64,000 nucleotides of DNA from an uncultured Bacilli bacterium (GTDB lineage Bacteria; Bacillota_I; Bacilli_A; RF39; UBA660), in assembly GCA_934096815.1 (NCBI GenBank), contig CAKOMY010000001.1:156614-220613 (forward strand). The letters run 5' to 3'. Position 1 is the stretch's first letter, and each line of letters begins with the position of its first letter. Positions 25,360 through 61,104 of this stretch are shown in pieces. The position numbers were made by a program, and so were the translations under genes. The notes below the pieces were generated by a model. That model saw nothing but the letters and a program-made list of their open reading frames with translations. It had not been told where the DNA came from and did no database searches.

Positions 25360-25752
25360 ATGAATATAATCCCAAGAGGTTTTTTCTTCGATGATGATTT
25401 AGATGATTTCTTTAAACCAGTTGTAAGAAAAAATGATGTAAAATGTGATATCTATGAGGAGGATGGTATGTACCATGTAGAAATGGATGTACCGGGATAC
25501 GATAAGAAAGATATTAAATTAGAAGTTAAAGATGGTTATTTAACTGTTAGTGCTTCTAAGGAGAAAGAAGAAAAAGAAACTAAGAAAAATTATATTAGAA
25601 AAGAAAGAACAATCGGTTCATTTAGTAGATCTTTTGCTTTAGGTGATATTGATGTTGATAAAATAGATGCTAAATTTGAAAATGGTATCTTAAATATTAC
25701 TATTCCTAAAGAAGAAAAAGTTGAAGCTAAGAAAACTATTGAAATTAAATAA
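25360..25752 (+). CDS. hsp20: Small heat-shock protein (Hsp20/alpha-crystallin family)
   Basis: Alpha-crystallin domain (YHVEMDVPGYDKKDIKLEVKDGYLTVSA ... FENGILNITIPK). Confidence 0.9.
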   Translation: MNIIPRGFFFDDDLDDFFKPVVRKNDVKCDIYEEDGMYHVEMDVPGYDKKDIKLEVKDGYLTVSASKEKEEKETKKNYIRKERTIGSFSRSFALGDIDVDKIDAKFENGILNITIPKEEKVEAKKTIEIK

Positions 25753-25757
25753 TTATG

Positions 25758-25783
25758 AAAGTACTCGAAAGAGTGCTTTTTTT
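25758..25783 (+). terminator. Terminator of hsp20
   Basis: AAAGTACTC-GAAA-GAGTGCTTT followed by a T-run. Confidence 0.7.
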
Positions 25784-25861
25784 AGTGAATTATTTATTGA
25801 TAAGATATTGATTATAAATTATTTTTTTGTTAAAGTTAAGATAGTAATAGAGGAGTTTGTG

Positions 25862-43554: not shown

Positions 43555-44445
43555 TTGGGTATGAATGAATTAGATTTGATGGATGGTAGTAAAAATGATT
43601 ATCAGTTGGTTACAGAACTTAGTAAAGTTGTTAGAAGTTATAAAGATAAAAATAAACCTGTTGATAAAAAATTTGTTTATAAAGTTGCAAATGTGTGTTT
43701 AATTAATAATGAAGTGGATTTAAAAAATGGTTTGATAATTGTTGGTAACTCTAAAGAAATTGAAAATGATTATGAATCTTGTTATGGTGATGATATGATT
43801 ACATATTCGTCTTTATCTTTAAGAAATTTTTATAAACGGATAGACAATTTTGGAAGTGCATATAATTTTGGCAATCATAATATGCTTTCTTATTATTCTG
43901 TAATATGTACTTTAATTCATGAAATGTCTCACGCTAGACAGGATTATATTGTAAACAATCATCCTTATTCATTTGCTGGAATTATTTATTCCTATTGTAG
44001 TAATGTTTTTGAAAGTGAGCCACTTTTTTATGATATATACTATGATTGTTTTCCAGAAGAAAGAAATGCCTTTTTAAGAGGAAATTATATTGCTAATATG
44101 GTAATTAAGCATGTTTATGGCGATAAATTATCACTTTTTTTCAAGGAATTATTTTTTCAAGAATTACTTATTAATTATGACTATGATATGTATCCATTAA
44201 AGAGATTTGGTGATGCTTGTAAGCAGTTTGGATATGACTATTTTGATAGATTAATTCCTGATGTTGAATTAACTCAAGAAAATTTTTTTGAACGTGTTTG
44301 GTGTGGTTATAGGATAACGGAAGAAGAATATAATTATTTACTTGATTTAAGTATTGGTATTTCTTATCCTAAAAATGATGTGGTAAAAGAATATTTAAAA
44401 AAATCTTCAATAAAAAGATTAATTTTAGATTTTAAAAAGAAATAA
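43555..44445 (+). CDS. Hypothetical protein with HExxH motif (putative Zn-metallopeptidase-like)
   Basis: LIHEMSHARQ, with a downstream Glu (NVFESEP) that could be a third ligand. Confidence 0.4.
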   Translation: MGMNELDLMDGSKNDYQLVTELSKVVRSYKDKNKPVDKKFVYKVANVCLINNEVDLKNGLIIVGNSKEIENDYESCYGDDMITYSSLSLRNFYKRIDNFGSAYNFGNHNMLSYYSVICTLIHEMSHARQDYIVNNHPYSFAGIIYSYCSNVFESEPLFYDIYYDCFPEERNAFLRGNYIANMVIKHVYGDKLSLFFKELFFQELLINYDYDMYPLKRFGDACKQFGYDYFDRLIPDVELTQENFFERVWCGYRITEEEYNYLLDLSIGISYPKNDVVKEYLKKSSIKRLILDFKKK

Positions 44446-44592: not shown

Positions 44593-45627
44593 ATGAATAT
44601 ATTAATTAATGGACATAATATTTATTTAATTTTATTGGTAACTTTTATATGTTGTGTTTTATTAGTGCCGCTTGCTAAAGTTGTTGCAAAACATATTGGA
44701 GCAATAGATATGCCTAATGAGAGAAAGGTGCATAAAAAACCAATGCCTAGATTAGGGGGACTTGCAATATATTTAACATTTTTAATTGGCTATATGTTAT
44801 TTGCACCTATTAATGAACAGATGATTTCAATTCTTATTGGAGGATTTATAATTATTATTCTTGGAATATGTGATGATATTAAACCAATTAGAGCAAGATA
44901 TAAATTTTTAGTTCAGATAGTAGCTGCTTCTATTGTTGTATTTTATGGTAATATATATTTACCTAATATAAGTGCACTTGGATTATCTCTAACTTTTGGA
45001 AAATGGGGTTATCCTTTAGCTATATTCTTTATTTTGGCTATTATTAATGCAATAAATTTAATTGATGGTATAGATGGGTTAGCAACAGGTACTAGTGCAA
45101 TATTTTTTGTTACTATAACTATAATTGCACTTCTGCTAGATAGGATTTATGGTTTAGATGTTATTTTATGTGTAATTATGCTTGGTGCTTGTTTAGGATT
45201 TTTAATGTATAATAAACCGCCTGCTTCAATATTTTTAGGAGATACGGGTAGTACGTTTTTAGGTTTTATTATTGCTATAATAGCACTTTTAGGTTATAAA
45301 ACGGCTACATTTACTAGTTTAATTATTCCAATATTTATATTACTTTTACCAATACTTGATACAGTGTTTGCAATGATTAGAAGATACTTAAAGGGAGAAA
45401 ATATAGGTGAGCCTGATAAAGAACATTTACATCATCAATTACTTAAACTTAATAATAGTACTACTAAGACAGTATTAATTATGTATGGAATTGATATTCT
45501 ATGTTCTGTGATAAGTGTTTTATATGCCTTAGGATATAATTTAACTGCTATAGTTTTATATTTATTATTAATGTCATTTATATTATTTTTGATTTATAAA
45601 ACTGATATATTATTTAAACATAAGTAG
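44593..45627 (+). CDS. tagO: UDP-GlcNAc:undecaprenyl-phosphate GlcNAc-1-phosphate transferase (TagO/WecA, MraY-like)
   Basis: PNERKVHKKPMPRLGG, DDxxP and NAINLIDGIDGLA motifs, with a polytopic membrane topology. Confidence 0.88.
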   Translation: MNILINGHNIYLILLVTFICCVLLVPLAKVVAKHIGAIDMPNERKVHKKPMPRLGGLAIYLTFLIGYMLFAPINEQMISILIGGFIIIILGICDDIKPIRARYKFLVQIVAASIVVFYGNIYLPNISALGLSLTFGKWGYPLAIFFILAIINAINLIDGIDGLATGTSAIFFVTITIIALLLDRIYGLDVILCVIMLGACLGFLMYNKPPASIFLGDTGSTFLGFIIAIIALLGYKTATFTSLIIPIFILLLPILDTVFAMIRRYLKGENIGEPDKEHLHHQLLKLNNSTTKTVLIMYGIDILCSVISVLYALGYNLTAIVLYLLLMSFILFLIYKTDILFKHK

Positions 45628-45684: not shown

Positions 45685-46413
45685 ATGAAGAATAGTAATT
45701 GTAAATTATTAGGTTATAATGTTTGCATATTAAATAAAAATGATATTGTAGATAAAATAAATAAGAGTAAGGATAGAAATATTATATTTAATTTAAATCC
45801 GATAATTATGGTAAATTTTAATAATAATATAGAATATAAAGCGTTTATAAATAATGAGAAATATAATATACCTGATGGATATGGAACAATTCTAGGTATG
45901 AGAATTAATGGCAATAAAGGATTTAATCAGTTAACTGGAGTAGATATGTTTAATGAACTTTTATGTAATGCATGTAAATATGATAAGAAAGTTTATTTAT
46001 ATGGTGCTAAAAACGAAGTTATTGAAAAGACTGTTAAAGTATTAAAAGAGAAGTATATTAACTTAAATATATGTGGTTATATGAGTGGATATAGTAAAGA
46101 AAAAGATGTATTAAATGATATAAAAAAATGTAAACCAGATTATTTATTTGTTGGTATAGGATCACCTAAACAAGAAGAATTTATCATTAGAAATGAAAAG
46201 TTGTTTAGAAATATAAGTGTTATTATGCCTGTTGGTGGTACGTTTGATGTTGTATCTGGTTTAAAGAAAAGAGCACCAATTATTTATCAAAAACTATACT
46301 TAGAATGGTTATATAGAATGATTAAAGAGCCTAAAAGAATTAAAGATAATGTTAAGATATTAAAATATTTATATTTGGTAATATTTAAAAATGGAGGTAA
46401 AGATGAAAAATAA
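45685..46413 (+). CDS. tagA: WecB/TagA/CpsF-family glycosyltransferase (N-acetylmannosaminyltransferase-like)
   Basis: Family profile (DGYGTILGMR, YLYGAK, VGIGSPKQEEFI, LEWLYRMIKEPKR). Confidence 0.85.
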   Translation: MKNSNCKLLGYNVCILNKNDIVDKINKSKDRNIIFNLNPIIMVNFNNNIEYKAFINNEKYNIPDGYGTILGMRINGNKGFNQLTGVDMFNELLCNACKYDKKVYLYGAKNEVIEKTVKVLKEKYINLNICGYMSGYSKEKDVLNDIKKCKPDYLFVGIGSPKQEEFIIRNEKLFRNISVIMPVGGTFDVVSGLKKRAPIIYQKLYLEWLYRMIKEPKRIKDNVKILKYLYLVIFKNGGKDEK

Positions 46414-47365
46414 AAGATTATATGTAGTTATACCTTGTTATAATGAAGAAGAAGTTTTAAGAGAAACAAGTAAGAGATTAAATGTTAAGTTAAACGAATT
46501 AATTAAAGATAAAACTATTTCTAAAGATAGTAAAGTATTATTTGTTAATGATGGATCTAAAGATAAAACTTGGAATATTATATGTGAATTAAATAAAGAA
46601 AATAAATTATTTAGTGGAATTAATTTATCAAGAAATAGAGGACACCAAAATGCGTTGGTAGCAGGACTTATGACTGCTAAAGAATATGCTGATGTGGTAA
46701 TATCTATGGATGCTGACTTACAAGACGATATTAATGCGATTGATGAAATGCTTAAAGATTATTATGATGGATCAGAAGTTGTTTATGGAGTTAGATCCTC
46801 AAGGGCAAAGGATACTTTCTTTAAAAAGTTTACAGCTGAAGCATTTTACAAGTTTATGAAATTTATGGGAGCTGATGTTGTATTTAATCATGCTGATTAT
46901 AGATTAACAAGTAAAAGAGTTTTAGATAATTTTGCAAATTATAAAGAAGTTAATTTATTTTTAAGAGGAATGTTTCCTTTAATTGGATTTAAATCTAGTA
47001 TAGTATATTATGAAAGGGCTGAAAGATTTGCAGGTGAGTCTAAATATCCATTAAAGAAAATGCTTAATTTTGCATGGGATGGGATAACATCTTTTAGTGT
47101 TAAACCAATAAGAATGATTCTTGATTTAGGTATATTTATTTGTATGATAAGTTTTGTAGTACTTATTTATTGTTTAATTAGAAAGATTAGCGGTGCTACT
47201 GTGGAAGGATGGACATTTATTGCTTGTTCATTATGGTTTTTAGGTGGTATTCAAATGTTTTCACTTGGTATAATTGGAGAATATGTTGGTAAGGTTTATA
47301 GTGAAACCAAAGCAAGACCTAGATATATTATTCAAGATAATTTATTAGAAAAGAAGGAAAAATAG
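46403..47365 (+). CDS. GT2-family polyprenol-phosphate glycosyltransferase (GtrB/ArnC-like) with C-terminal TM helices
   Basis: GGAGGT RBS. VVIPCYNEE, DGSKDKT and DADLQDD (the DxD motif). Two C-terminal TM helices. Confidence 0.85.
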   Translation: MKNKRLYVVIPCYNEEEVLRETSKRLNVKLNELIKDKTISKDSKVLFVNDGSKDKTWNIICELNKENKLFSGINLSRNRGHQNALVAGLMTAKEYADVVISMDADLQDDINAIDEMLKDYYDGSEVVYGVRSSRAKDTFFKKFTAEAFYKFMKFMGADVVFNHADYRLTSKRVLDNFANYKEVNLFLRGMFPLIGFKSSIVYYERAERFAGESKYPLKKMLNFAWDGITSFSVKPIRMILDLGIFICMISFVVLIYCLIRKISGATVEGWTFIACSLWFLGGIQMFSLGIIGEYVGKVYSETKARPRYIIQDNLLEKKEK

Positions 47366-47398: not shown

Positions 47399-47483
47399 TA
47401 TTTATTTAATAAATTGTATTGATATGTTCAAAAAAAGATGATATAGTTTAATTATGAACAAATTAATTATAGGAGTTGATTAT

Positions 47484-48461
47484 ATGAAAAAGTATATGTA
47501 TTTGTTGTTTTTGCTTATTTTATTTGTTGTAACAGGTTGTTCAAAAAAAGGAGATCAAATTGTTATTTATACATCTATGGAGGAAAATCGTAATAAAGCT
47601 TTAAAAGAGCAATTAGCTGAAAAATTTCCGGATAAAAAAATTGTGGTTCAATATTTATCAACTGGGAATTGTGCTGCAAAAATAAAAAATGAAGGTATAG
47701 AAGTGGAAGCAGATATTGTCCTAGATTTAGAAACTGCACATATGGCTGAACTTGAGGATAATTTTGCTGATTTATCATCTTTTGATACAAGTATTTATCT
47801 TGATGGAGTTAATAAGTCAAATAGATATTTAACTTGGACTAAATATACCATGACGTTAGTTATTGATAAAAATTATTTTGATGAACATAATTTATCGATA
47901 CCAAAAACTTATGAAGATTTGTTAAAACCTGAATATAAAAATTTAATTGCTATCCCTGATCCTAAAACATCTGGTACTGGTTACGCTTTTTACTTAAATG
48001 TTGTTAATATAATGGGTGAAGATAATGCTATTAAGTATTTTAAAAAATTAAAAAACAATTTAAGAGAATTTACAACTTCTGGTTCTGGACCTACAAACTT
48101 ATTAAAACAAGGTGAAATAGCTATTGCAATGGGAATGACAAGTCAAGGGGTAGAAGCTATTAATGAAGGGTATAATTTTAAAATTGTTTCTTTAAAAACT
48201 GGTGCTCCATATAATACTACTAGTTTTGGTATTATTAAGGGAAGAGAAAACAAAGAAAATGTACGTGAAGTTTTTGAGTGGTTAATGAATGATTTTGGAA
48301 AATATGATAAAGAATATTTTCTACCTGATAAGATTCTTAAAAATCAAGAAGTTAAAGTGAAAAATTATCCTACAAATTTAAAAGATGCAAAAATGGATGG
48401 TATAGATAGTGTTAGCGTCAAACAAGATTTAATTAGTAAGTGGGAAAAAGTTAATGGCTAG
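47484..48461 (+). CDS. ABC substrate-binding lipoprotein, FbpA/AfuA/ThiB/PhnS (COG1840-type) family
   Basis: Lipobox VTGC. Cluster E-like SBP profile. The start is at the ATG after TAGGAG. Confidence 0.75.
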   Translation: MKKYMYLLFLLILFVVTGCSKKGDQIVIYTSMEENRNKALKEQLAEKFPDKKIVVQYLSTGNCAAKIKNEGIEVEADIVLDLETAHMAELEDNFADLSSFDTSIYLDGVNKSNRYLTWTKYTMTLVIDKNYFDEHNLSIPKTYEDLLKPEYKNLIAIPDPKTSGTGYAFYLNVVNIMGEDNAIKYFKKLKNNLREFTTSGSGPTNLLKQGEIAIAMGMTSQGVEAINEGYNFKIVSLKTGAPYNTTSFGIIKGRENKENVREVFEWLMNDFGKYDKEYFLPDKILKNQEVKVKNYPTNLKDAKMDGIDSVSVKQDLISKWEKVNG

Positions 48462-49215
48462 TATTGAGGTTAAAAATATTTCAAAAATTTTTGATAATAA
48501 ATTGGTATTAAATGATTTGAATTTTAAAGTTAATGATGGCGAATTATTATCTATTTTAGGTAAATCAGGTTGTGGTAAAACGACTTTATTAAAGATATTA
48601 ATTGGTATTGAGAGACCATCGAGTGGAAGTATTTTAAAGAATAATAAAAATATTACAAATTATGATATTTCTAAGAGAGATATGGGAATAGTATTTCAAA
48701 ATTATGCATTGTTTCCAAATATGACTGTTCTTGAAAATGTTTCATATGCTTTAAAAAATAAATTAAAAAATAAGAATGAAGCAATAAAACAGGCTATGGA
48801 TATAATTTCAATGGTGAATTTAGAGGAACATGTAAATAAATATCCTAATGAACTATCAGGAGGTCAGATGCAAAGAGTGGCAATAGCTAGAACTTTAGCT
48901 CTTAAACCTGATGTTATTTTATTTGACGAAGCATTAAGTGCATTAGATGCTGAAAATAAAATAATTCTTAGAAATAAAATTAGAGAACTTAATAAAAAAT
49001 TTAACATTACAATGATATTTATTAGTCATGATCAAGAAGAAGCATTTTCAATATCTGATCGTGTTATGATTATGAATGATGGTTCTATTGAACAAATAGA
49101 TGAACCAAGTGAGATTTTTAAACATCCTGCGTCAAAATATGTTGAAGATTTTGTAGTTAATCATTTAAAAGAAAAGGTAACTTCAATTCAAAAGTGTATT
49201 AAGGCTGATTTATGA
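48454..49215 (+). CDS. ABC transporter ATP-binding protein (FbpC/ThiQ/PotA-like)
   Basis: Walker A GKSGCGKTT, LSGGQMQR signature and ILFDEALSALD Walker B. Overlaps the SBP gene. Confidence 0.9.
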   Translation: MASIEVKNISKIFDNKLVLNDLNFKVNDGELLSILGKSGCGKTTLLKILIGIERPSSGSILKNNKNITNYDISKRDMGIVFQNYALFPNMTVLENVSYALKNKLKNKNEAIKQAMDIISMVNLEEHVNKYPNELSGGQMQRVAIARTLALKPDVILFDEALSALDAENKIILRNKIRELNKKFNITMIFISHDQEEAFSISDRVMIMNDGSIEQIDEPSEIFKHPASKYVEDFVVNHLKEKVTSIQKCIKADL

Positions 49216-50795
49216 TGAAAAAATTTAAAATTAATAAAACAGAAATATTAGTATCATTATTTTTAATTGTTTCTGTTTTGATTCCAATTTCAAAACTATT
49301 TATTTATGTTAAATGGGAAACATTAGGCAAATTAGTAACTTCCAATGCATTTAAAAATGCTTTAAATAATTCGCTTATTGTAACGTCTATTTCGACAATT
49401 CTATCAATTATAATTGCTTATGTTATTGCCTATACTTTAAATAGAGTTGATATTAAGTTTAAAAAGTTTTTTAAGTTAGTATTTGTATTTCCAATGCTCA
49501 TTCCATCTGTTTCACATGGATTAGGGTTAATTAATTTATTTGGTACTAATGGAATTATATCTAGATATTTTGATTTTAATATTATTGGACCTGTTGGAAT
49601 TATAATTGGATCAATAATGTATTCTTTTCCAGTTGCGTTTTTAATGCTAGATGATGGATTTAAATATATTGATAATAATATGTATTATGTTTCAAAGTCG
49701 CTTAATTTAAATAGTTTTCAAATTTTTAAAAATGTTACTTTGGTTTATTTGAAAAAATCTATTCTGTCTTCTATTTTTGCTGTGTTTACTATGATTTTTA
49801 CTGATTATGGTGTACCAATAGCGGTAGGTGGCAAATTTAATACTTTACCCGTATTTTTATATAAAGAAGTTATAGGTTTACTTGATTTTTCAAAGGGAAC
49901 TATGATTGCAATGTTTTTACTTATTCCTGCAATAATTTCTTTTTTAGTTGATACTTTTGTTAAGGATTATAATAATGAAAATACTGGTAATAAAAATTAT
50001 TATAGTTCTAATAAAGTTTTATCTATATTTTTAAAATCATTTGTTGTTTTGATTACTATTTTAATTTTTGTGGTACTTGGTTCATTTATTTATTATGCAT
50101 TTGTTGATAATGTTGTACTTAATAATTCGTTTTCATTAAAACATTTTGAATATGTTATTGAAAATAGTGTTGGTGATTATTTATTAAATTCATTAATCAT
50201 ATCTTTATTTGTTGCAGTTATTGGAACTTGTATTTCTTATTTTGCTGCTTATAATACGGCAAGAGTTAGAGGAAAAATGTCTAAATTAATTCATTTATTT
50301 ACGATAATTACTTTAGCTATCCCTGGTATAGTTTTGGGACTTGCTTATACGATTTGTTTTAAAGGTACTTTTATCGCTAATACATTTGTCATAATAATAA
50401 TTTGTAATATTGTACATTTTATTGCATCACCTTATTTGATGGCTTACAACGCACTTTTAAAAGTTAATAGTAATTATGAAGTTGTTGCTTCTACACTGAA
50501 TGTTGGTATTTTAAAAATTATTAAGGATGTAATTATTCCTTGTACTAAAAGTACAATTATCGAAATGTTTTCTTATTTTTTTGTTAATAGTATGATTACA
50601 ATATCAGCTGTAACATTTTTATACACTTCTTCAACAATGCCTGTTTCATTATTAATAAATAATTATGAGGGAAATATGATGTTGGGAGAGGCTGCAATTG
50701 TTTCAATAATAATTTTATTAATTAATTTATTTGTTAAAATTGTTACTAATATTTTTGTGTCAAAAGATAGAAAGAAGGTTTATATTAATGATTAA
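49212..50795 (+). CDS. Fused two-domain ABC permease (FbpB/ThiP-like, ~12 TM)
   Basis: 527 aa with two BPD_transp_1-like halves. Overlaps the ATPase gene by ATGA. Confidence 0.85.
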   Translation: MMKKFKINKTEILVSLFLIVSVLIPISKLFIYVKWETLGKLVTSNAFKNALNNSLIVTSISTILSIIIAYVIAYTLNRVDIKFKKFFKLVFVFPMLIPSVSHGLGLINLFGTNGIISRYFDFNIIGPVGIIIGSIMYSFPVAFLMLDDGFKYIDNNMYYVSKSLNLNSFQIFKNVTLVYLKKSILSSIFAVFTMIFTDYGVPIAVGGKFNTLPVFLYKEVIGLLDFSKGTMIAMFLLIPAIISFLVDTFVKDYNNENTGNKNYYSSNKVLSIFLKSFVVLITILIFVVLGSFIYYAFVDNVVLNNSFSLKHFEYVIENSVGDYLLNSLIISLFVAVIGTCISYFAAYNTARVRGKMSKLIHLFTIITLAIPGIVLGLAYTICFKGTFIANTFVIIIICNIVHFIASPYLMAYNALLKVNSNYEVVASTLNVGILKIIKDVIIPCTKSTIIEMFSYFFVNSMITISAVTFLYTSSTMPVSLLINNYEGNMMLGEAAIVSIIILLINLFVKIVTNIFVSKDRKKVYIND

Positions 50796-51678
50796 TGAAA
50801 ATGAATTTGAGGTATTAGTTTGTTTAGAAAGAGAAAAAAGATGTTGTTCACAACGTGAAGTTGCTAAATTAGCTAATTTATCTTTGGGAACAGTTAATAA
50901 AGCAATGATTTCATTAACTAAAAAGAATTTTATAAGTGAAAATGGTAATATTACTTCCGAAGGTATTAATGCTTTAGAACCATATAGAGTTAAAAGAGCG
51001 GTTTTTTTAGCAGCTGGATTTGGTTCTAGAATGGTTCCTATTACTTTGAATACACCTAAACCTTTAGTTAGAGTAAATGGTAAAAGAATTATTGAAACTT
51101 TAATAGATGCAGTCAAGAAAGCTGAAATTCCTGAAATTGTTATTGTAACAGGATATTTGCATGAACAATTTGAAGAATTATTAAGGAAATATGACAACAT
51201 TAAATTAATATACAATAAGTTTTATAATGAAATGAATAATATATCTTCTGCATATGTTGTTAAAGATTTATTAAAAAATGCTTATGTATTAGAATCTGAT
51301 TTATTACTTTATAATTCAAATATAATAAGAAAGTACGAATTTCATTCAAATTTCTTAGGAAAAAAGGTGGATGTTACAGATGATTGGTGTTTTGATGTAA
51401 AAAATGGAATTATTATAAAAGAAAGACAAGGTGGCTATGATTGTTATCAAATGTATGGTATTTCATACTATGATGAAAAAGATGGCGAAAAAATATTTTC
51501 TGATATAACTAAAGTTTTTAATATGCCAGGTGGTAAAGAAAAATATTGGGAACAAGTCATTTTGGACGTTTGTAAAAATAATTATAAAATTTATTTAAGA
51601 GAATGCTATGATGGTGATATAATAGAAATAGATTCATTTAAAGAGTTAAAAGAAATTGATAAATCTTATGATATTTAG
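50788..51678 (+). CDS. LicC-like nucleotidyltransferase (NTP_transferase) fused to an N-terminal winged-helix domain
   Basis: AVFLAAGFGSRMVPITLNTPKPLVRVNGKRIIE aligns closely to LicC CTP:phosphocholine cytidylyltransferase. It is preceded by ~75 aa with a MarR/ArsR-like wHTH (VLVCLEREKRCCSQREVAKLANLSLGTVNKAM). The start overlaps the permease stop. Confidence 0.75.
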   Translation: MINENEFEVLVCLEREKRCCSQREVAKLANLSLGTVNKAMISLTKKNFISENGNITSEGINALEPYRVKRAVFLAAGFGSRMVPITLNTPKPLVRVNGKRIIETLIDAVKKAEIPEIVIVTGYLHEQFEELLRKYDNIKLIYNKFYNEMNNISSAYVVKDLLKNAYVLESDLLLYNSNIIRKYEFHSNFLGKKVDVTDDWCFDVKNGIIIKERQGGYDCYQMYGISYYDEKDGEKIFSDITKVFNMPGGKEKYWEQVILDVCKNNYKIYLRECYDGDIIEIDSFKELKEIDKSYDI

Positions 51679-51707
51679 ATAATAATTTTTTATCAGTGGA
51701 GGTTTTT

Positions 51708-54608
51708 ATGGTAAAAGAAAATAAAATATCTTTACTTTTTGTGTTATTACCATTTCTTGATTTATTTACAGCATTATTTACAAGAAACACTATTTTTGTT
51801 ATTTCTCCTGGAATAATTTTTAAGAGTTTATTACTTTTATATTTTGTAGTATATATATTAAACTCTAAATCAAAGTTTAAAAAAGTTTTGATTTGCTATT
51901 TAATATTTATATTGCTTTATTTATTTATGTATTTCATCATTAAGAATGATCTTCTTGATTTAAATTATTTATTAACTGAACTTACTTTTTTATTTAAATT
52001 AATTTATTTTCCTATTTGTTTTATGGGATTATTGTGTTTTTTTGATGATAACAATATTAAAGAGAATACTATTACTGGTATTTTTAAATACAGTTTAATT
52101 ATTTATGTATTATTACTAATTATTCCTACAATATTTGGTATTTCTTATACTACTTATCCAATGCATTTAAAAGGATATATTGGATTATATTATGCAGGAA
52201 ATGAGATTGCTAATATAATGGTTATATTATTTCCATTTGCTTATTTATTTATTAATAAAAGTAAATATAGTTTTTTAATTATTTTTCCAATTATTCTTGT
52301 TATGATGATGATTGGAACTAAAGTCGCGACCTTTGGTTGTTTAATAATTACAATATTATCATTAATATTTAGTATAATAAAAAATAAATTTAGAATTAAT
52401 AAAGTTGTAATTAAGTGTTTTTCTATATTTGTATTTGCTTTATTTATATCTACAAATTCATATGCTGTTTATAATTATAATTATATAAAGAATAATGTTT
52501 ATAATGATGAAAGTAAAGAAATTATTATTGATGATAATAATAAAGCAAAAGTTGAGGAAATTCAAGGATATTTAAATATTTTTTATGATAAAAATAAATT
52601 AACTAAAATAATTAGACCATTAGTAAGTGGTAGGGATATACTTCTTGCTAATACGATAAGTATATATAATGATTTAGATAATGATTCTAATATATGGTTA
52701 GGAATAGGTTTTTCTAATACTAATAGCGTTAATAATACAAATGTTGCTAGGTTAATAGAAATTGATATTTGTGATTTATATTTTCATTTTGGAATTATTG
52801 GGTTATTAATTTCTTTATTTCCATTTATAATTGTTGGTTATTTATTTATTGTTAATTTTAGTAAAATTAAACTTAATAGTATATATTTATTATTTATATT
52901 ATTTCTTGTGATTGGTGTTTCAACATTTAGTGGACATATTTTATTTGCGCCAGCTGTATCAATTTATTTGGTGTTATTATTGTTATTATTTTTATATGAA
53001 TTTGATTGTTATGGGAGAAAAATTAATAAAAATAAAAAGATATCAATTTTAGCACTTCATTTAGGATATGGTGGTGTTGAAAAATCTATTATTGATCAAG
53101 CTAATATGTTAAGTGAATTTTATGATGTTGAAGTTGTGTCTTTATATAAGCTTTATGATTATATTCCTTATAAGGTTAATGATAAAGTTAAAATGAAATA
53201 TTTATCAAATTTAAAACCAAATAGGAATGAATTTAAAGATGCTGTTAAGAGAGAAAATATTAAAGATATAATTAATGAAGGCTTTAAAGCAATTAAAATA
53301 TTATATTTAAAAAGCAAGTTGATAGGTGATTATATTTATAATTGCGATTCTAATGTTGTTATTTCTTCTAGAATTGATTTTACAAAATTGTTAAATAGAT
53401 ATGGTAATAATTTAGCTGTAAAAGTAGCTGAGGAGCATGTCTATCATAATAATAGTAAAAAATATTTTAAATTGTTAAAGAAATCTATGAAAAATATAAA
53501 TTATTTAATTCCTGCAAGTAAATATTTATATGATGATTATGAAAAATTATTTAAAAATGAAAATGTGATTGTTAAATATATACCTCAAATTGTTGGTGAT
53601 ATTCCTTTAAATAAAAGTAAATGTAATAATTATAATATTGTTTCAGTTGGAAGATTATCTAAAGAAAAGGGATATGATGATTTGATTAAAGTGTTTGATT
53701 TAGTTCATAAAAAAAATAAAAAAATTAAACTTACAATTGTTGGTGATGGAGATGAAAAAGAAAATTTAGAAAATTTGGTCAGTCAATATAAGTTAAATAA
53801 GTATATAAAATTTACTGGTTTTTTAACTCAAGATAAGTTAAAAGATGTATATATTAATTCTTCATTATATGTTATGACTTCTTTAGAAGAATCTTTTGGT
53901 TTAGTTTTATTAGAAGCAATGAGTTATGGAATACCTTGTGTTGCTTTTGATTCTGCTTTAGGAGCTAAAGAAATAATTGATGATAAATCAGGTATATTGA
54001 TTAAAAATCGTAATTTAGCTGAAATGGCTGATACTATATGTAATTATTTTGATGGAAAATATAAATTCAATATTTCTGATAAGATTCAAAATTATTCATA
54101 TGATAAAGTTAAAATTGTGTGGAGAAATTTTGTTGATGATTGTTTAAATAAAAATGATAAAAAAAGATGTTTATTTGTTTCTAGTCAAGGTGGTCATTTA
54201 AATGAATTGTTGAAATTAGAAGATACTATTAATAATTATAATTCTTTAGTGATTACTGAAAGATGCAATAATAATTTAAAATATAAAACTAAATATTTGA
54301 TGGCTACAACTAGATATCAATTTAGTTATGTTTACGGTATATTTTATAATTGTTTTAAGAGCCTAAATATATTTTTGAGTTTTTCCCCTGATGTTATAAT
54401 TTCAACCGGATCTCATACCGCAATACCTTTGTGTTTAATTGGTCACTTATTTGGAAAAAAGATAGTATATATAGAATCTTTTGCAAATATTTCTACTAAA
54501 TCGTTAGCAGGAAGGATAGTTTATAATTTTGCTGATGTTTTTATAGTTCAATGGGAGAATATGCTTAAATTATATCCTAATGCGATATATATAGGAGGTT
54601 TGTATTGA
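51708..54608 (+). CDS. Tri-domain fusion: Wzy/WaaL-like polytopic membrane domain + GT4 glycosyltransferase + Alg14-like domain
   Basis: About 440 aa of TM helices with a Wzy_C-like loop (IWLGIGFSNT...LYFHFGIIGLL). A GT-B/GT4 core (VGRLSKEKGYDDL...EESFGLVLLEAMSYGIPCVAFD). The C-terminal 140 aa match Alg14/Cps14F-like (LFVSSQGGHLNE...GSHTAIP...IESFANIS). Confidence 0.7.
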   Translation: MVKENKISLLFVLLPFLDLFTALFTRNTIFVISPGIIFKSLLLLYFVVYILNSKSKFKKVLICYLIFILLYLFMYFIIKNDLLDLNYLLTELTFLFKLIYFPICFMGLLCFFDDNNIKENTITGIFKYSLIIYVLLLIIPTIFGISYTTYPMHLKGYIGLYYAGNEIANIMVILFPFAYLFINKSKYSFLIIFPIILVMMMIGTKVATFGCLIITILSLIFSIIKNKFRINKVVIKCFSIFVFALFISTNSYAVYNYNYIKNNVYNDESKEIIIDDNNKAKVEEIQGYLNIFYDKNKLTKIIRPLVSGRDILLANTISIYNDLDNDSNIWLGIGFSNTNSVNNTNVARLIEIDICDLYFHFGIIGLLISLFPFIIVGYLFIVNFSKIKLNSIYLLFILFLVIGVSTFSGHILFAPAVSIYLVLLLLLFLYEFDCYGRKINKNKKISILALHLGYGGVEKSIIDQANMLSEFYDVEVVSLYKLYDYIPYKVNDKVKMKYLSNLKPNRNEFKDAVKRENIKDIINEGFKAIKILYLKSKLIGDYIYNCDSNVVISSRIDFTKLLNRYGNNLAVKVAEEHVYHNNSKKYFKLLKKSMKNINYLIPASKYLYDDYEKLFKNENVIVKYIPQIVGDIPLNKSKCNNYNIVSVGRLSKEKGYDDLIKVFDLVHKKNKKIKLTIVGDGDEKENLENLVSQYKLNKYIKFTGFLTQDKLKDVYINSSLYVMTSLEESFGLVLLEAMSYGIPCVAFDSALGAKEIIDDKSGILIKNRNLAEMADTICNYFDGKYKFNISDKIQNYSYDKVKIVWRNFVDDCLNKNDKKRCLFVSSQGGHLNELLKLEDTINNYNSLVITERCNNNLKYKTKYLMATTRYQFSYVYGIFYNCFKSLNIFLSFSPDVIISTGSHTAIPLCLIGHLFGKKIVYIESFANISTKSLAGRIVYNFADVFIVQWENMLKLYPNAIYIGGLY

Positions 54609-55081
54609 AAATTTTTGTTACTTTAGGTAGTAGTAATCAAAATTTTAATAGATTACTAAAAAAAATAGATGAGCTTGCAAAAAATAATATTATTGATGAT
54701 GTAATTGTTCAGTCTAATTCAAGTGATTATGTTCCTAAAAACTATATAATTAAAAATCATTTAAATTTTGATGAGTATAAAAAGTATGTTGAAAACTGTG
54801 AAATTTTGATAACTCATGGTGGTGTTGGATGTATTTTTGATGGATTAATGAATAATAAAAAGATTATTGCATTTCCTAGGATGAGTGAATATCATGAAGC
54901 TGTTAATGATCATCAAAAACAAATTGTAGATAAATTTTATAGTGATGGATATATATTAACTGGTAATATTGATGATTTAGATAAATTAATCACAAATATT
55001 GATAGTTTTACTCCAAAAAAATATAAATCTAATACTAATTTATTTAATAAAAAACTTATTGACATTATCGAAAAATTATAG
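54605..55081 (+). CDS. Alg13-like glycosyltransferase catalytic subunit (Glyco_tran_28_C; Cps14G/EpsF-like)
   Basis: TTG start overlapping the upstream TGA, with an AGGAGG RBS. MKIFVTLGSS ... ITHGGVGCIF motifs. Confidence 0.75.
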   Translation: MKIFVTLGSSNQNFNRLLKKIDELAKNNIIDDVIVQSNSSDYVPKNYIIKNHLNFDEYKKYVENCEILITHGGVGCIFDGLMNNKKIIAFPRMSEYHEAVNDHQKQIVDKFYSDGYILTGNIDDLDKLITNIDSFTPKKYKSNTNLFNKKLIDIIEKL

Positions 55082-55102
55082 AGAGCCTATTTGCTCTTTT
55101 TA
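55082..55102 (+). terminator. Terminator after the Alg13-like gene
   Basis: AGAGC-loop-GCTCT followed by T5. Confidence 0.6.
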
Positions 55103-55261
55103 ATTTAAATAATTTTGATACGAATAATTGCTAATCTTGCTAGGCTTTTATTTTAAGGTATAAAAACATTGTAAAAGCAGAAACTTTTGTATTATACGTT
55201 AAAAAACTTGAAATACTATTAATTTAGTTTTTTTTTTGTTATGATTATATCGTGGTGGAAA

Positions 55262-56257
55262 ATGAAAATAGATATGTATGATTTTGATGATACCATTTAT
55301 AATGGGGATTCAACTGTTGATTTTATAAAATATTGTTATAAACATAAGTATATTAAATTTAGGGATATAATAAAGATTATAGGAGCTTTTATTAAATATT
55401 TTTTTGGGGTTATTAATATAACTCAGTTTAAAGAGGTATTATTTAGTTTTTTAAATAATGTTAATGATGGGTATTGCTTAGTAAATGATTTTTGGGATGA
55501 ACATTATAAAAATATTAAGAAATTTTATTTAGATAAAAATCATGATAATGATGTTATTAATTCTGCTAGTCCTTATTTCTTACTTAAGCCTGTTTGTGAT
55601 AAGTTAAGCGTTAAAGATTTAATTGCATCTGATGTAGATTTAAAAACTGGAAGGTTTAGAGAAAAAAATAATAGTAGAGAGGTAAAAGTAGATAATTATA
55701 AAAAAAAATATATAAATTATATTTTAGATGAATGTTATAGTGATAATCCTTTTAATGATAAATTTATATTAGAACTTGCTAATAAGCCTTATGTGGTTAA
55801 GGGAGAAAAATTAATTAATTATTATGATTATAAACCATCTTTTGTAAAATCTATTTTTAGAAAGTTATGGGGATTTTATAGAAGTCATTTAGAAGTTATA
55901 AATTATTTATTTATAGGTGGTTGTACAACTGTTATATCAATTTTAAGTTATGCTTTATTTGCTAAAGTTTGTTATCTTGATTTAGTTGTATCTAATGTGT
56001 TATCATGGATTATGGCTGTTTTATTTGCTTATTTTACTAATAGAGTTATAGTTTTTAATAGTAAAAATAAGAATTATATAAAAGAGTTTATTTCATTTAC
56101 GGGAAGTAGGGTTATAACTTTAATTCTTGATACTTTGTTAATGATTTTGTTTGTTAGGTCATTAAATATGAATGATATGATAGCTAAGTTAATTGTTCAA
56201 ATTGTTGTTATTATTGGAAATTATTTAATTAGTAAATTACTAGTGTTTAAGAAGTAG
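55262..56257 (+). CDS. HAD-superfamily hydrolase domain fused to a GtrA-like 4-TM domain
   Basis: HAD motif I DFDDT at the N-terminus. The C-terminal 120 aa match the GtrA family (LFIGGCTTVISILSYALFAKV ... ISKLLVFKK). Confidence 0.65.
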   Translation: MKIDMYDFDDTIYNGDSTVDFIKYCYKHKYIKFRDIIKIIGAFIKYFFGVINITQFKEVLFSFLNNVNDGYCLVNDFWDEHYKNIKKFYLDKNHDNDVINSASPYFLLKPVCDKLSVKDLIASDVDLKTGRFREKNNSREVKVDNYKKKYINYILDECYSDNPFNDKFILELANKPYVVKGEKLINYYDYKPSFVKSIFRKLWGFYRSHLEVINYLFIGGCTTVISILSYALFAKVCYLDLVVSNVLSWIMAVLFAYFTNRVIVFNSKNKNYIKEFISFTGSRVITLILDTLLMILFVRSLNMNDMIAKLIVQIVVIIGNYLISKLLVFKK

Positions 56258-56269
56258 GTGTGAATATAT

Positions 56270-56902
56270 ATGAAAAAGTTTATAGGTTTTTATAGGGATT
56301 GCGATTTATTAACCATGACTGGTACTTTTATGGCTCTTTTAGGGTGTATTTTATCAATTAATGGTAGTCGTGTTATACCTATATTTTGTTTAATTATATC
56401 GGGGATATGTGATGCTTTTGATGGTAAGCTTGCAAGAAGAAAACTTTGTTCTAATATGCAAAGGGTTTATGGTGTTCAATTAGATTCTTTATCTGATTTA
56501 ATTTCATTTGGTGTTTTTCCTTTAGTTTATACAATTAATATATTACCTAAGAATTATTATTTTGGATGGATTGCTTTAATATTTTATAGTCTATGTGGTA
56601 TGATTAGACTTGCTTACTTTAATACTCTTGATATATGTAAGAAAGCTGATAAAAAATGTTTTGTTGGTATGCCAATTACTTCTATTGCTATTTTTTATCC
56701 AATTGTTTTTATGTTTTTATGGGTAGTTAAATTTAAATTTTATCCGGAAATTGTTTCTGTTTTTATGATTTTAATGGGATTATCATTTATTAGTACTATT
56801 AAAATAAAGAAATTAGATGATAAGAAAAAGATTGTTCTTTCGATTGGCGGTATATTATTTATTATTTGTTTTTTAGTTTTTTATTTCTTTTGTAGAAAAT
56901 AA
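56270..56902 (+). CDS. CDP-alcohol phosphatidyltransferase, PssA-like
   Basis: DAFDGKLARRKLCSNMQRVYGVQLDSLSDLISFG fits D-G-x2-A-R-x8-G-x3-D-x3-D. The best resemblance is to B. subtilis phosphatidylserine synthase. No psd gene is adjacent. Confidence 0.7.
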   Translation: MKKFIGFYRDCDLLTMTGTFMALLGCILSINGSRVIPIFCLIISGICDAFDGKLARRKLCSNMQRVYGVQLDSLSDLISFGVFPLVYTINILPKNYYFGWIALIFYSLCGMIRLAYFNTLDICKKADKKCFVGMPITSIAIFYPIVFMFLWVVKFKFYPEIVSVFMILMGLSFISTIKIKKLDDKKKIVLSIGGILFIICFLVFYFFCRK

Positions 56903-59543: not shown

Positions 59544-60524
59544 ATGAAGTGGAAAATTGGTAATGTTGAAATTAAAAATCAAATTGTTCTTGCTCCAATG
59601 GCAGGAATAAGTAATACTGCATATCGTCAAATTATTAAAGAGATGGGAGCTGGACTTATTTTTGCGGAAATGGTTAGTGATAAAGCATTAGTTTATGGAA
59701 GTGAAAAGACATTTGATTTGCTAAAAATGAATGATATGGAAAGGCCCATTGCTCAACAAATATTTGGTAGTGATGTTGATTCTTTTGTTAAGGCTGCTAA
59801 GTTAGTTGAAGATGCTATGCATCCTGATATTATAGATATTAATATGGGATGTCCGGTACCAAAGGTAGCTATTAAATCACAAGCAGGAAGTGCTCTTTTA
59901 AAAAATCCAGATAAAATAAAAGAAATAGTTAGCGCTGTTGTTAATGCTGTAAGTGTTCCGGTTACTGTTAAAATACGAAGTGGTTGGGATGAAAAAAGTA
60001 TTAATGCAGTAGAAGTTGCTAAAGTTATTGAAGAAGCTGGGGCAAGTGCTATTACAGTTCATGGAAGAACTAGAGCACAAGGTTATAGTGGAAATGCTGA
60101 TTGGAATATAATAAAACAAGTTAAAGAAACAGTAAAAATTCCTGTTATAGGTAATGGTGATGTTACAAGTGCTGAAAAAGCAAAAGAAATGCTTGATTAT
60201 ACTGGATGTGATGCAGTCATGATAGGTAGAGGAGTACTTGGAAATCCTTGGCTTATTAATGAATGTGTAACCTATTTAGAGTCAGGAATTATTCCCTCAA
60301 GACCAAGTTCAAAAGAAAAAATAGAAATGCTAAAAAGACATTATAAATTATTAGTAGAGTCGACTTCAGAAAGACAAGCAATACTTGAAATTAGAACGCA
60401 TGCATTATGGTATATAAAAGGTATGCCAAAAAGTGCGTATATAAAAAATGAAATATGTAAAACTAAAAATAGTGAAGATTTATTTAAAATCTTAGATGAT
60501 TATTTAGGAGAATTAGATGATTAA
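59544..60524 (+). CDS. dusB: tRNA-dihydrouridine synthase
   Basis: LAPMAGISN, catalytic Cys (NMGCP) and FMN-binding TIM-barrel motifs. Confidence 0.9.
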   Translation: MKWKIGNVEIKNQIVLAPMAGISNTAYRQIIKEMGAGLIFAEMVSDKALVYGSEKTFDLLKMNDMERPIAQQIFGSDVDSFVKAAKLVEDAMHPDIIDINMGCPVPKVAIKSQAGSALLKNPDKIKEIVSAVVNAVSVPVTVKIRSGWDEKSINAVEVAKVIEEAGASAITVHGRTRAQGYSGNADWNIIKQVKETVKIPVIGNGDVTSAEKAKEMLDYTGCDAVMIGRGVLGNPWLINECVTYLESGIIPSRPSSKEKIEMLKRHYKLLVESTSERQAILEIRTHALWYIKGMPKSAYIKNEICKTKNSEDLFKILDDYLGELDD

Positions 60525-61104
60525 AAATATTTTTAGTAAACAAAATTTAAAATATGCATTGTTGGAACTATTGGTGGGACTATTTTTACTTTTTAAATGA
60601 TATATTACATATTAATTATTTATTAACAAATGTGGTTACTTTTATAGTAACTGTTACTATTTTGTATTTCTTAAATAAAAAATTTGTTTATGAAGCTGAT
60701 TATAATGATAATGTAGGATTTGTAATGTTTTTTGCAAGTAGAATAGTATTGTTTTAACTTTTGGTTTAAAGATATTTATGTCTCCGAGTATGATTTCTAA
60801 ATTTATTTCTTCATCTTCAACTACTTATATAAATTATTGTGTTGGTAAATTTATTTTTAATAATAAAAATTAATATGCTTTATTGTAATATCTTTCTTTA
60901 CTGTTTTCTACGTTTTGTTTAGAAAGAATATTTTATTTTTTTCATCTTACTTCGTTTCGACCTTTTTCTATTTTAATTTATTTACTATCGTTTTGATTAT
61001 TTTATATATTTGTTTTCTACATTTTGTGCCTATTAATAGAGCAATTATAGATTGATTAATATTTTAGTTTAGTCTATAATTATATTAAGGATATGGAGGA
61101 TAAA

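Follow-up and report, generated by a model that had tools for sequence, protein, structure and literature searches.

Organization of the locus

The window analysed here is a stretch of 64,000 nucleotides from an uncultured low-GC gut bacterium. It contains a TagO/TagA-type wall-glycopolymer locus that begins with a WecA/TagO-like gene and is closed by two adjacent genes, one encoding a fusion of a HAD phosphatase domain to a GtrA domain (HAD-GtrA) and the other a CDP-alcohol phosphatidyltransferase (CDP-OH enzyme). The relevant features are as follows.

44593-45627, plus strand: WecA/TagO-like GT4 phosphotransferase, start of the wall-polymer locus
46391-47365, plus strand: GT2 polyprenyl-phosphate glycosyltransferase (PgfS/GtrB/ArnC-like)
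47454-51678, plus strand: ABC importer (PhnS2/AfuA-like binding protein, ATPase, fused permease), then wHTH-LicC; given as context
55080-55099, plus strand: terminator-like hairpin (7-bp stem, T-run), just past an Alg13/PssE-like gene
55262-56257, plus strand: HAD-GtrA fusion gene (the first ORF spans 55241-56257)
55262-55846, plus strand: HAD-IB phosphatase domain of the fusion, predicted cytoplasmic, with a C1-type helical cap
55889-56257, plus strand: GtrA/DPMS-type domain with four transmembrane (TM) helices, C-terminal part of the fusion
56270-56902, plus strand: CDP-OH enzyme of 210 aa, a PssA-derived paralogue of the clade referred to here as group A
60517-60867, plus strand: pseudogene of a stand-alone 127-aa GtrA (tblastn HSPs in three frames)

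An ORF check of the window found both genes on the plus strand where the initial annotation had placed them, and its domain calls were right (Pfam HAD, GtrA and PF01066). The start at 55262 (MKIDMYDFDDT) agrees with most HAD-GtrA homologues (331 aa, beginning with MK). The pair had also been described as lying downstream of its own terminator and promoter region, of which the terminator is borne out by the hairpin at 55080-55099 (two terminator-like sites found against 0.4 expected). The promoter is not, as the scan gave 28 matches against 26.7 expected, which is the level of chance and uninformative at 23% GC. An AT-rich spacer of 160 nt separates the hairpin from the HAD-GtrA gene.

Pfam searches of 30 further ORFs of the window revealed nothing related outside 44.6-56.9 kb, and tblastn found no homologues of UbiA, sulfatase-family proteins, psd or gpsA anywhere in the 64 kb; the earlier statement that no psd is adjacent thus holds for the whole window. 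Neither YfhO, PMT_2 nor any other GT-C gene was found within it. Compared with its orthologues in the related loci L092 and L093, which are intact, the GtrA pseudogene has lost segments of 1, 13 and 19 nt (DNA alignment A5). The L093 copy was checked with Pfam, and a stand-alone GtrA of this kind accompanies the CDP-OH enzyme in relatives.

The HAD-GtrA fusion protein

The HAD domain matches PF12710 with 31.6 bits (cut-off 27; residues 13-151). Its catalytic residues are D7-F-D9-D-T11 (motif I), S101 (motif II), K142 (motif III) and S160-D161...D166 (motif IV), and D7, D9, T11, S101, K142, S160-D161 and D166 are invariant across 43 sequences, so that motifs II-IV, whose absence the initial annotation would have taken as evidence against its reading, are all present. 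An AF2 model of the whole protein (pLDDT 90.4) has a Rossmann core, a helical cap at residues 17-90 and then four TM helices. The nearest structures found by Foldseek for the HAD domain are HAD-IB/SerB-like (top 3fvv, E 3e-7), while a PDB sequence search with HAD-GtrA returned nothing significant. Motifs, cap and Pfam match place the domain in HAD subfamily IB, with a TIGR01490 score below the cut-off (33 vs 98). The HAD-UbiA fusion model NF006088 is reached by one relative (P0245, E 0.0097) and not by the HAD of the window; this relationship being marginal, the assignment as a phosphoribose phosphatase rests on gene context.

The GtrA domain scores 82.3 bits against PF04138 (cut-off 26.1; residues 222-336), with helices at residues 210-236, 241-264, 272-300 and 305-328 of the AF2 model. 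Foldseek shows that it resembles the Dol-P-binding TM domain of the Pyrococcus furiosus Dol-P-Man synthase (5mlz). A K/R-rich linker and the loop between TM2 and TM3 suggest that both termini of the domain are cytoplasmic. We propose that it is the flippase or lipid-binding part of the fusion. To our knowledge, GtrA proteins are known only with polyprenyl-phosphate sugars and not with phospholipids.

Distribution and gene context of the HAD-GtrA family

The fusion of HAD to GtrA had been considered unusual. It is not: the family comprises at least 346 protein clusters and at least 577 species-level loci, mainly in gut Firmicutes, with 903 representatives at 50% identity, and we found no description of such fusions in the literature searched. 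The homologous HAD domain also occurs stand-alone or fused to YfhO, PMT_2 or GT2, and the homologues, fused or free, adjoin genes for UbiA of the decaprenyl-phosphate phosphoribosyltransferase (DPPRS) type, GT-C transferases, free GtrA and epimerase-like proteins. UbiA lies within five genes of HAD in 18 of 75 loci, and a neighbouring UbiA passes the NCBIfam DPPRS cut-off (211.7 vs 207). The UbiA-linked HADs are scattered over the whole HAD tree, including sisters of the window clade; around the closest relatives, no UbiA was found within 8 kb on either side of the gene (L001-17 and L092-101). The neighbouring UbiA, GT-C and free GtrA genes support the earlier idea that HAD dephosphorylates a lipid-linked intermediate that is then flipped.

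HAD-GtrA also lies directly after ispD-ispF in eight Clostridia loci, and in 12 related Bacilli loci the HAD(-GtrA) gene has a WecA/TagO-like gene (wecA/tagO) as its immediate upstream neighbour, with no UbiA at these sites, so the HAD substrate may differ. These positions favour a role of the protein in carrier-lipid supply, for instance as a cytoplasmic-face polyprenyl-diphosphate or polyprenyl-phosphate phosphatase held on a polyprenyl-phosphate-binding GtrA. The fusion of HAD to several unrelated polyprenyl-phosphate users (GT2, YfhO, PMT_2, GtrA) and the binding of Dol-P by the GtrA fold in DPMS point the same way. We consider this very unlikely, however, because DPPRS-type UbiA, which makes a product with a 5-phosphate, gives the strongest and most widespread context signal, and because we know of no biochemical precedent for a HAD-IB carrier-lipid phosphatase of this kind.

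The CDP-alcohol phosphatidyltransferase

The 210-aa enzyme belongs to PF01066 (43.8 bits, cut-off 22), and its motif D48xxD51G52xxA55R56-x11-G68xxxD72xxxD76 is invariant in alignment A2. Its sole solved relative is PssA, the best match being MjPSS (E 2e-9), and its top NCBIfam matches are serine synthases. It scores below the cut-offs of the PssA equivalog TIGR00473 (70.8 bits vs 107) and of the archaetidylserine synthase model (93.3 vs 240), and matches the phosphatidylcholine synthase models weakly (E 1e-5). It shares with the type II phosphatidylserine synthases (M. jannaschii 7b1k/7pow; B. subtilis PssA) the family, the catalytic motif, serines at the positions of Ser63 and Ser65 and an arginine at Arg101; the Ser1-site residues of MjPSS are largely kept (S63 and S65 retained, A59 replaced by V). 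In contrast to these enzymes, the motif spacer is 11 residues instead of 8 and a Tyr replaces Arg104, but both features also occur in relatives linked to psd.

Its score under the PssA cut-off, an N-terminal R-x-C-D motif particular to its clade and the lack of any psd next to the gene set the enzyme apart from known type II synthases. Among relatives at up to 41% identity, psd follows within three genes in 26 distinct sequences, whereas the enzyme's own clade (about 41% identity and above) is never found beside psd. Twenty sequences have sulfatase-family, GtrA or HAD neighbours; psd accompanies 0 of these 20, so that the overlap between the two sets is 0 of 46. The psd-linked and the GtrA/sulfatase-linked enzymes differ at only five conserved positions, none in the metal or CDP motif. 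Arg9, Cys11 and Asp12 (the R-x-C-D motif) are invariant in group A, whereas the psd-linked group has a conserved Val12 and, in alignment A2, Asn in place of Arg9. The five differences are suggestive of a change in specificity, although they do not name the acceptor.

These data bear on whether the enzyme is simply the phosphatidylserine (PS) synthase of the cell, with psd elsewhere and HAD-GtrA an unrelated neighbour in a polysaccharide locus. The closest solved structure and the best NCBIfam matches are compatible with this, as is the conserved downstream synteny with housekeeping genes, and the catalytic and acceptor-side motif is nearly identical in the psd-linked relatives at 35-41% identity; given this near-identity, the enzyme may simply make PS. 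We nevertheless regard a housekeeping role as quite unlikely. The exclusion of psd is strict, the score falls below the PssA equivalog cut-off, and the clade is always inside wall-polymer loci, linked repeatedly and independently to GtrA and sulfatase-family genes, with more than 100 protein clusters in which it is fused to a sulfatase-family domain. The doubt expressed in the initial annotation about plain PS/PE synthesis is justified, and we assign the enzyme to an undescribed offshoot of phosphatidylserine synthase rather than to housekeeping PssA.

The same annotation had offered a Kennedy-type reaction, like that of Treponema Cpt, as the alternative. In such a reading, CDP-choline or CMP-AEP would come from the ABC importer and LicC, and the 210-aa enzyme would move the head group to diacylglycerol. 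A genuine LicC homologue does lie 5 kb upstream (E 3e-33 against Streptococcus pneumoniae LicC, PDB 1jyk; the second structure match is the PntC-type enzyme of T. denticola, 6pd1), it is preceded by an importer of the phospho-compound type, no LicD was seen in the locus by Pfam, and the weak match to phosphatidylcholine synthase would also fit. The substrates of phosphatidylcholine synthase (Pcs) itself, however, are CDP-DAG and choline in free form rather than CDP-choline. None of the related CDP-OH loci has LicC or the importer, their linkage to the HAD-GtrA/CDP-OH pair is not kept in relatives, and the enzyme groups with CDP-DAG-using PssA and not with the choline/ethanolamine phosphotransferases, its catalytic motif being that of these PssA enzymes and common to the psd-linked relatives. 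A Kennedy-type reaction is unsupported and, in our view, highly improbable. Two apparent licC matches, in L102 and L113, were identified by sequence inspection as HddC/GmhB-like fusions of an NTP-transferase and GmhB (heptose-type).

Partners of the group A enzymes

The partners of the clade, which the initial annotation had missed, are GtrA and LtaS/OpgB-like sulfatase-family transferases, the latter also as fusions. The arrangements seen include CDP-OH/sulfatase/GtrA, sulfatase/CDP-OH/GtrA and wecA/gpsA/CDP-OH/sulfatase, and the more than 100 fused clusters encode proteins of approximately 800 aa. A GtrA gene directly follows the fusion gene in L107, L111 and L172/L173, of which the last lie inside WecA/ABC-transporter polymer loci. 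The sulfatase-family partners are PF00884 membrane proteins, one of which resembles the phosphoglycerol transferase OpgB (E 2e-45). The L107 protein, read by eye, appears to carry ESFS, NTEFE and GDH, which we take to be the LtaS-type catalytic motifs. Synthase, GtrA and outside transferase occur together in L087, L090, L107, L111, L108 and L172. Of these components, the window has intact copies only of the synthase and, within the HAD fusion, of GtrA. No description of clusters of CDP-OH, GtrA and LtaS, or of PssA and LtaS, was found in the literature searched.

A proposed role in the decoration of a wall polymer

Most likely, the HAD-GtrA and CDP-OH genes serve the decoration of a cell-wall polymer, by making donors linked to membrane lipids that are then flipped to the outside. 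In the form that we favour, with a probability of approximately 45%, the two proteins carry out the cytoplasmic-face steps of two related routes to such donors. As we infer the substrates, the flipping and the final acceptor, the HAD-IB domain of the first route would act in the cytoplasm at the membrane surface and cleave a phosphomonoester at the end of a lipid-linked head group, the substrate being by family context most likely polyprenyl-phospho-ribose-5-phosphate or a sugar phosphate like it. Once dephosphorylated, this polyprenyl-phosphate-linked donor would be bound and flipped by the fused GtrA, for use by a transferase on the extracytoplasmic side. In the second route, the 210-aa enzyme would join CDP-diacylglycerol and a small alcohol to form a dedicated phospholipid not bound for PE. 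In relatives, a small GtrA would present this lipid outside, where the LtaS/OpgB-like transferase of the alkaline-phosphatase superfamily would move the phospho-head group onto the polymer. Within the window, both routes lack parts (no UbiA, sulfatase-family, YfhO or PMT_2 gene). Because the partners of the second route are missing from the 64 kb or broken, the fused GtrA may serve both routes, or the second route may be decaying.

An alternative is that both proteins belong to one pathway, in which the CDP-OH enzyme joins CDP-DAG to a phosphorylated alcohol such as sn-glycerol-3-phosphate, HAD dephosphorylates the PGP-like product as PgpC does, and the fused GtrA flips it, leaving transfer of the phospho-head group to the wall polymer to an LtaS/OpgB-like enzyme with its gene elsewhere. 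The 15 related loci with an enzyme of at least 65% identity all have HAD-GtrA as the next gene upstream of the CDP-OH gene, as does the window, where 12 nt separate stop and start (in L095 the genes overlap by 4 nt). Lineage gene order, however, is also kept across unrelated genes (ABC-FtsX, pduL, dusB), so adjacency alone is weak evidence. The stand-alone HAD relatives match the PgpC model TIGR01545 (E 1e-6 to 1e-7), although the window protein falls short of it, and gpsA adjoins in L081-83 and L108/109. The OpgB-like partner, the group A-specific Arg9, Cys11 and Asp12, and the loss of the dedicated GtrA in the window while the fused one is intact are also in keeping with a single pathway. 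Against it, no PgsA model matched the 210-aa enzyme among the NCBIfam results at E<0.01, and the psd-linked relatives have an identical DG..AR..G...D...D region. In at least 10 loci, as in the more than 100 fusion proteins, no HAD accompanies the group A enzyme, most HAD-GtrA loci have no CDP-OH enzyme, and in L094-L100, L003 and L005 a second GtrA comes right after the CDP-OH gene. We regard a single pathway as rather unlikely.

A broader reading, which we put forward tentatively and with the odds against it, is that group A CDP-OH enzyme, small GtrA and LtaS/OpgB-like transferase form an undescribed three-component system, and that HAD-GtrA is a portable adaptor for dephosphorylation followed by flipping. 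A dedicated, non-bulk lipid-phospho-alcohol would arise at the inner leaflet, GtrA would flip it, and outside it would serve to attach a phospho-alcohol group to a wall glycopolymer. The adaptor would plug into any synthase whose product has a phosphorylated head group, which would be the DPPRS-type UbiA for Clostridia and, for this Bacilli lineage, the CDP-OH enzyme.

Comparison with known systems

The precedent for the first route is the pentofuranose system of Citrobacter youngae, in which ORF15/14/12 encode a PPPRS (UbiA) with a HAD phosphoribose-phosphatase domain, a flippase and a GT-C, and the HAD phosphatase makes undP-Ribf (Kelly et al. 2024, PMC11127046). As in that system, a cytoplasmic HAD phosphatase is coupled here to a membrane enzyme of a polyprenyl-phosphate donor route, and homologues of the window HAD adjoin DPPRS-type UbiA, GT-C and epimerase-like genes. 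In contrast, the HAD is joined to a GtrA flippase-type domain instead of the UbiA synthase, and its similarity to the fusion model NF006088 is marginal. The published flippase is of the MATE type, whereas the window has GtrA and neither UbiA nor GT-C.

The mycobacterial decaprenyl-phospho-arabinose route follows the same logic, from synthase (Rv3806c, a DPPRS) through removal of the 5-phosphate (Rv3807c) to a GtrA-family protein (Rv3789). The UbiA neighbours of the HAD homologues pass the DPPRS model cut-off, but Rv3807c is a PAP2-type enzyme and not a HAD (PMC11127046), and the mycobacterial phosphatase and GtrA protein are separate where those of the window are fused. The GtrA domain also recalls the GtrA/GtrB/Gtr* and CsbB/GtcA/YfhO three-component glycosylation systems of O antigens and teichoic acids, since a GtrB/PgfS-like GT2 (46391-47365) is present in the locus and relatives carry HAD-YfhO and HAD-PMT_2 fusions. 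Those systems have no phosphatase step, however, and no GT-C gene was found in the window. The GT2 may be the synthase that works with the fused GtrA; homologues of the GT2 adjoin HAD-GtrA or HAD-GT-C genes in L007 and L075.

Regarding the second route, the phosphoglycerol transferases LtaS, GacH and OpgB and the phosphoethanolamine transferases EptA, OpgE and BcsG, so far as they are characterised, are known to take their donors only from bulk phospholipids (PG or PE). The partners of the CDP-OH clade resemble these enzymes in being PF00884 membrane proteins, but here each transferase comes with a head-group synthase of its own, as a neighbour or as a fusion partner, and with a GtrA, an arrangement of which no description was found in the literature searched. 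E. coli PgpC (YfhB), a phosphatidylglycerophosphatase, is likewise a membrane-tethered HAD-IB enzyme and acts on a lipid-linked phosphomonoester, as proposed here for the window HAD; the anchor of PgpC is a single TM helix, not a GtrA domain.

Gram-positive wall polymers are decorated with groups such as sugars, glycerol phosphate and phosphocholine, and these influence interactions with phages, the immune system and antibiotics. In a large family, a transferase fused to, or beside, its own PssA-like synthase and GtrA points to a dedicated donor lipid, and the same linkage suggests a flipping step for it, both of which would be new. The three-component system, if real, would extend GtrA function beyond polyprenyl-phosphate sugars. 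HAD-GtrA would supply the missing phosphatase and flippase of a polyprenyl-phospho-pentofuranose pathway in abundant uncultured gut Firmicutes, and would be a simple genomic marker for such wall decorations. At present, all the members are annotated only as "HAD-like hydrolase", "CDP-alcohol phosphatidyltransferase" and "sulfatase-like hydrolase/transferase".

Wall-glycopolymer locus

The HAD-GtrA fusion gene (gene 1) and the CDP-alcohol phosphatidyltransferase gene (gene 2; CDP-OH enzyme) proposed in the initial annotation were confirmed by Pfam domains, and lie at the end of a wall-glycopolymer locus at 44.6-56.9 kb of the window (+ strand; window GC approximately 23%). Nearly all related loci belong to MAGs of uncultured gut 'Bacilli' and Clostridia. 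We consider, with a probability of about 0.45, that both serve wall-polymer decoration outside the cell through lipid-linked donors. HAD-GtrA would remove the terminal phosphate from a polyprenyl-phosphate-linked sugar phosphate (a putative substrate) and then flip the product, and the CDP-OH enzyme, a probable PssA-derived paralogue, would make a dedicated phospholipid donor (head group putative) used by an LtaS/OpgB-like phospho-head-group transferase.

Features of the locus (window positions)
from 44593, +: WecA/TagO-like GT4, first in the locus
from 45685, +: TagA
from 46391, +: GtrB/PgfS-like GT2
47454-50795, +: PhnS2/AfuA-like ABC importer (binding protein, ATPase, fused double permease)
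from 50731, +: wHTH-LicC, a LicC orthologue with an N-terminal winged-helix domain (with importer, 47454-51678)
from 51696, +: 970-aa fusion of an O-antigen-ligase/Wzy_C-like 430-aa membrane domain, GT4 and an Alg14/PssD-like domain
from 54605, +: Alg13/PssE-like gene, its start overlapping the stop of the 970-aa fusion gene (pair, 51696-55081)
55080-55099: terminator-like hairpin, after Alg13/PssE and before gene 1
55262-56257, +: gene 1, HAD-GtrA (HAD PF12710, 31.6 bits; GtrA PF04138, 82.3 bits)
56270-56902, +: gene 2, CDP-alcohol phosphatidyltransferase (PF01066, 43.8 bits)

The spacer between the hairpin and gene 1 is 160 nt. Translation of gene 1 could also begin at an in-frame ATG (55241), but this is less probable. 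The initial annotation had used the LicC-like gene to argue for a Kennedy-type reaction by the CDP-OH enzyme. The gene is real (E 3e-33 against S. pneumoniae LicC), but among all loci examined LicC and the importer occur in the window only, the linkage to the CDP-OH gene being seen at no other locus, and such a reaction is highly improbable. The LicC product is presumably CDP-choline or CMP-AEP; the locus has neither a LicA kinase nor a LicD transferase.

Fusions of the 970-aa type are also found upstream of HAD-GtrA in relatives L003, L007 and L095. Just upstream of wecA, a 296-aa ORF (43555-44445, +) has an HExxH-like motif (IHEMSHARQ) and no Pfam or NCBIfam match; two long ORFs (23152-24990 and 25721-27166, +; 612 and 481 aa) match no Pfam family at E<0.001.

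The HAD-GtrA protein

Judged by its conserved motifs, the HAD domain is catalytically complete: the residues of motifs II-IV, whose possible absence had been raised earlier, are present, and D7, D9, T11, S101, K142, S160-D161 and D166 are invariant among 43 homologues (49-87% identity). In the AlphaFold2 model (pLDDT 90.4), a Rossmann core carrying a helical C1 cap (residues 17-90) is joined by a basic amphipathic linker to four TM helices. In a Foldseek search of the PDB, the N-terminal half matched HAD-IB/phosphoserine-phosphatase-like structures (3fvv, E 3e-7) and the C-terminal half matched the TM domain that binds Dol-P in P. furiosus Dol-P-mannose synthase. As the linker and the TM2-3 loop are K/R-rich, the positive-inside rule would place the HAD domain in the cytoplasm.

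The fusion, initially thought unusual, is common: a word-indexed search gave at least 346 clusters (90% identity), almost every one of them two-domain, and scanning a single genome for each GTDB species gave at least 577 loci; the HAD domain alone as query retrieved 903 representatives at 50% identity (exhaustive HMMER search). It occurs alone (~190 aa), with GtrA (~330 aa), with GtrA and additional membrane domains (P0242, P0266; the P0242 type has 300-570 extra residues, a membrane domain of no assigned kind), and N-terminal to YfhO (P0249; HAD part 53% identical), to a PMT_2-type GT-C protein (P0261) or to a GT2 (P0260). This Rosetta-stone variety of fusions says that the HAD probably belongs to extracytoplasmic glycosylation pathways using polyprenyl-phosphate-linked donors.

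Gene neighbourhood of the HAD

Among 75 loci with HAD(-GtrA), a UbiA-family gene lies within five genes in 18, mostly directly upstream; wecA/tagO is directly upstream in 12, ispD-ispF is upstream in eight, and an unrelated DnaJ block adjoins HAD-only proteins in 11 (Ruminococcus-type MAGs). Scored against the NCBIfam equivalog model for decaprenyl-phosphate phosphoribosyltransferase, the UbiA representative reaches 211.7 bits (cut-off 207). Its neighbours include PMT_2-type GT-C enzymes and further large polytopic proteins, besides free GtrA genes and genes resembling SDR epimerases. The same logic is found in the undP-ribofuranose pathway, where a PRPP-dependent polyprenyl-phosphate phosphoribosyltransferase leaves a 5-phosphate that a HAD 'phosphoribose phosphatase' strips before flipping and GT-C transfer (Kelly et al. 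2024; PMC11127046). Mycobacterial Rv3806c/Rv3807c/Rv3789 also match; however, the window-type HAD is only marginally homologous to the published undP-ribofuranose phosphatase domain. UbiA-linked HADs are scattered over the whole NJ tree of HAD domains, some sister to the window clade, and no UbiA gene is within reach of window-clade HAD-GtrA (L001-L017, L092-L101) or in the window.

That the HAD is a carrier-lipid phosphatase seems very unlikely. In Clostridia MAGs (L024, L029-L032, L038, L039, L069), HAD-GtrA or HAD directly follows carD-ispD-ispF, which links it to isoprenoid precursor genes and not to a polysaccharide locus.

Coupling of the two genes

HAD-GtrA is immediately 5' of the CDP-OH gene wherever the CDP-OH enzyme shares 65% identity or more with that of the window (15 loci plus the window). 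Because the downstream ABC-FtsX, pduL and dusB genes are equally syntenic, this adjacency may mirror common ancestry. Many of these loci have a second small GtrA gene, right after the CDP-OH gene (L003, L005, L094-L100) or after dusB (L092, L093). The window copy (60517-60867, +), directly after dusB, is a pseudogene: compared with the intact orthologues of L092 and L093 (127 aa) it has lost 1, 13 and 19 nt, so that its reading frame is split over three frames. The main rival is a single pathway in which HAD dephosphorylates a PGP-like CDP-OH product and the fused GtrA flips it; this would account both for how tightly the two genes are coupled and for why the window has lost its separate GtrA. 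Stand-alone HAD relatives match the PgpC (phosphatidylglycerophosphatase C) model at approximately E 1e-6; the CDP-OH enzyme had no PgsA match in the NCBIfam search. We regard this single pathway as possible, if rather doubtful.

The CDP-alcohol phosphatidyltransferase

As initially proposed, the enzyme most resembles phosphatidylserine synthase: M. jannaschii PS synthase (MjPSS; E 2e-9) is the one relative of known structure, and the best NCBIfam matches of the enzyme are serine synthases, every one below cut-off (pssA 70.8 against 107). The 11-residue spacer of the signature motif and the Tyr at the MjPSS Arg104 position are both common to psd-followed relatives (L084-86), and therefore neither counts against PS synthesis. 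The catalytic region is the same in the psd-linked and the GtrA/sulfatase-linked groups (the latter, group A, includes the window enzyme). Conserved differences between them are D12/V, M16/Y, Y67/F, S75/C and F131/Y, and Arg9-x-Cys11-Asp12 is invariant in group A. In MjPSS the cleft through which serine is proposed to enter is lined by the N-terminal helix (PMC8633023), so the group A acceptor may possibly have changed from serine.

Genomic context is the decisive evidence on the role of this enzyme. Among 62 distinct sequences (from 80 metagenome loci and look-ups), 26 have psd within three genes, each at most 41% identical to the window enzyme; 20, each approximately 41% identical or above, neighbour a PF00884 sulfatase-family gene, GtrA or HAD-GtrA, and none combines both contexts. 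A plain PssA is thus unlikely. The arrangements differ, which indicates independent linkage events:

L087: cdpoh, sulfatase, GtrA, tagA
L090: sulfatase, cdpoh, GtrA
L081: wecA, gpsA, cdpoh, sulfatase
L108: wecA, gpsA, .., sulfatase, cdpoh, tagA-fusion, GtrA
L113: wecA, sulfatase, cdpoh

No sulfatase-family gene was found within the 64-kb window; some close relatives have one (L004-L006, L097). One partner sulfatase resembles the phosphoglycerol transferase OpgB (E 2e-45). In L107 and L111, a single ORF of ~800 aa joins an N-terminal CDP-OH to a C-terminal sulfatase domain and is followed by a GtrA gene; the L107-type sulfatase domain, as judged by eye, appears to bear LtaS-like catalytic motifs. 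Uncultured Bacilli have over 100 clusters (90% identity) of such fusions (L107:757-3159; L111:447-2882; L172:7001-9427; L174:7001-9433), which share 36-56% identity with the query fusion and are labelled in the database just 'sulfatase-like hydrolase/transferase'. Two look-ups placed them within WecA/O-antigen-ligase-like/ABC-transporter polymer loci. In L172/173 a small GtrA gene overlaps the fusion gene end; in L174 there is no GtrA nearby, and a separate second CDP-OH_P_transf gene (188 aa, 9503-10069) directly follows.

In wall-polymer loci L081-83 and L108/109, gpsA, for NAD(P)H-dependent glycerol-3-phosphate dehydrogenase (L081:5883-6854), lies between wecA and the CDP-OH/sulfatase genes, a position that hints at an involvement of glycerol phosphate.
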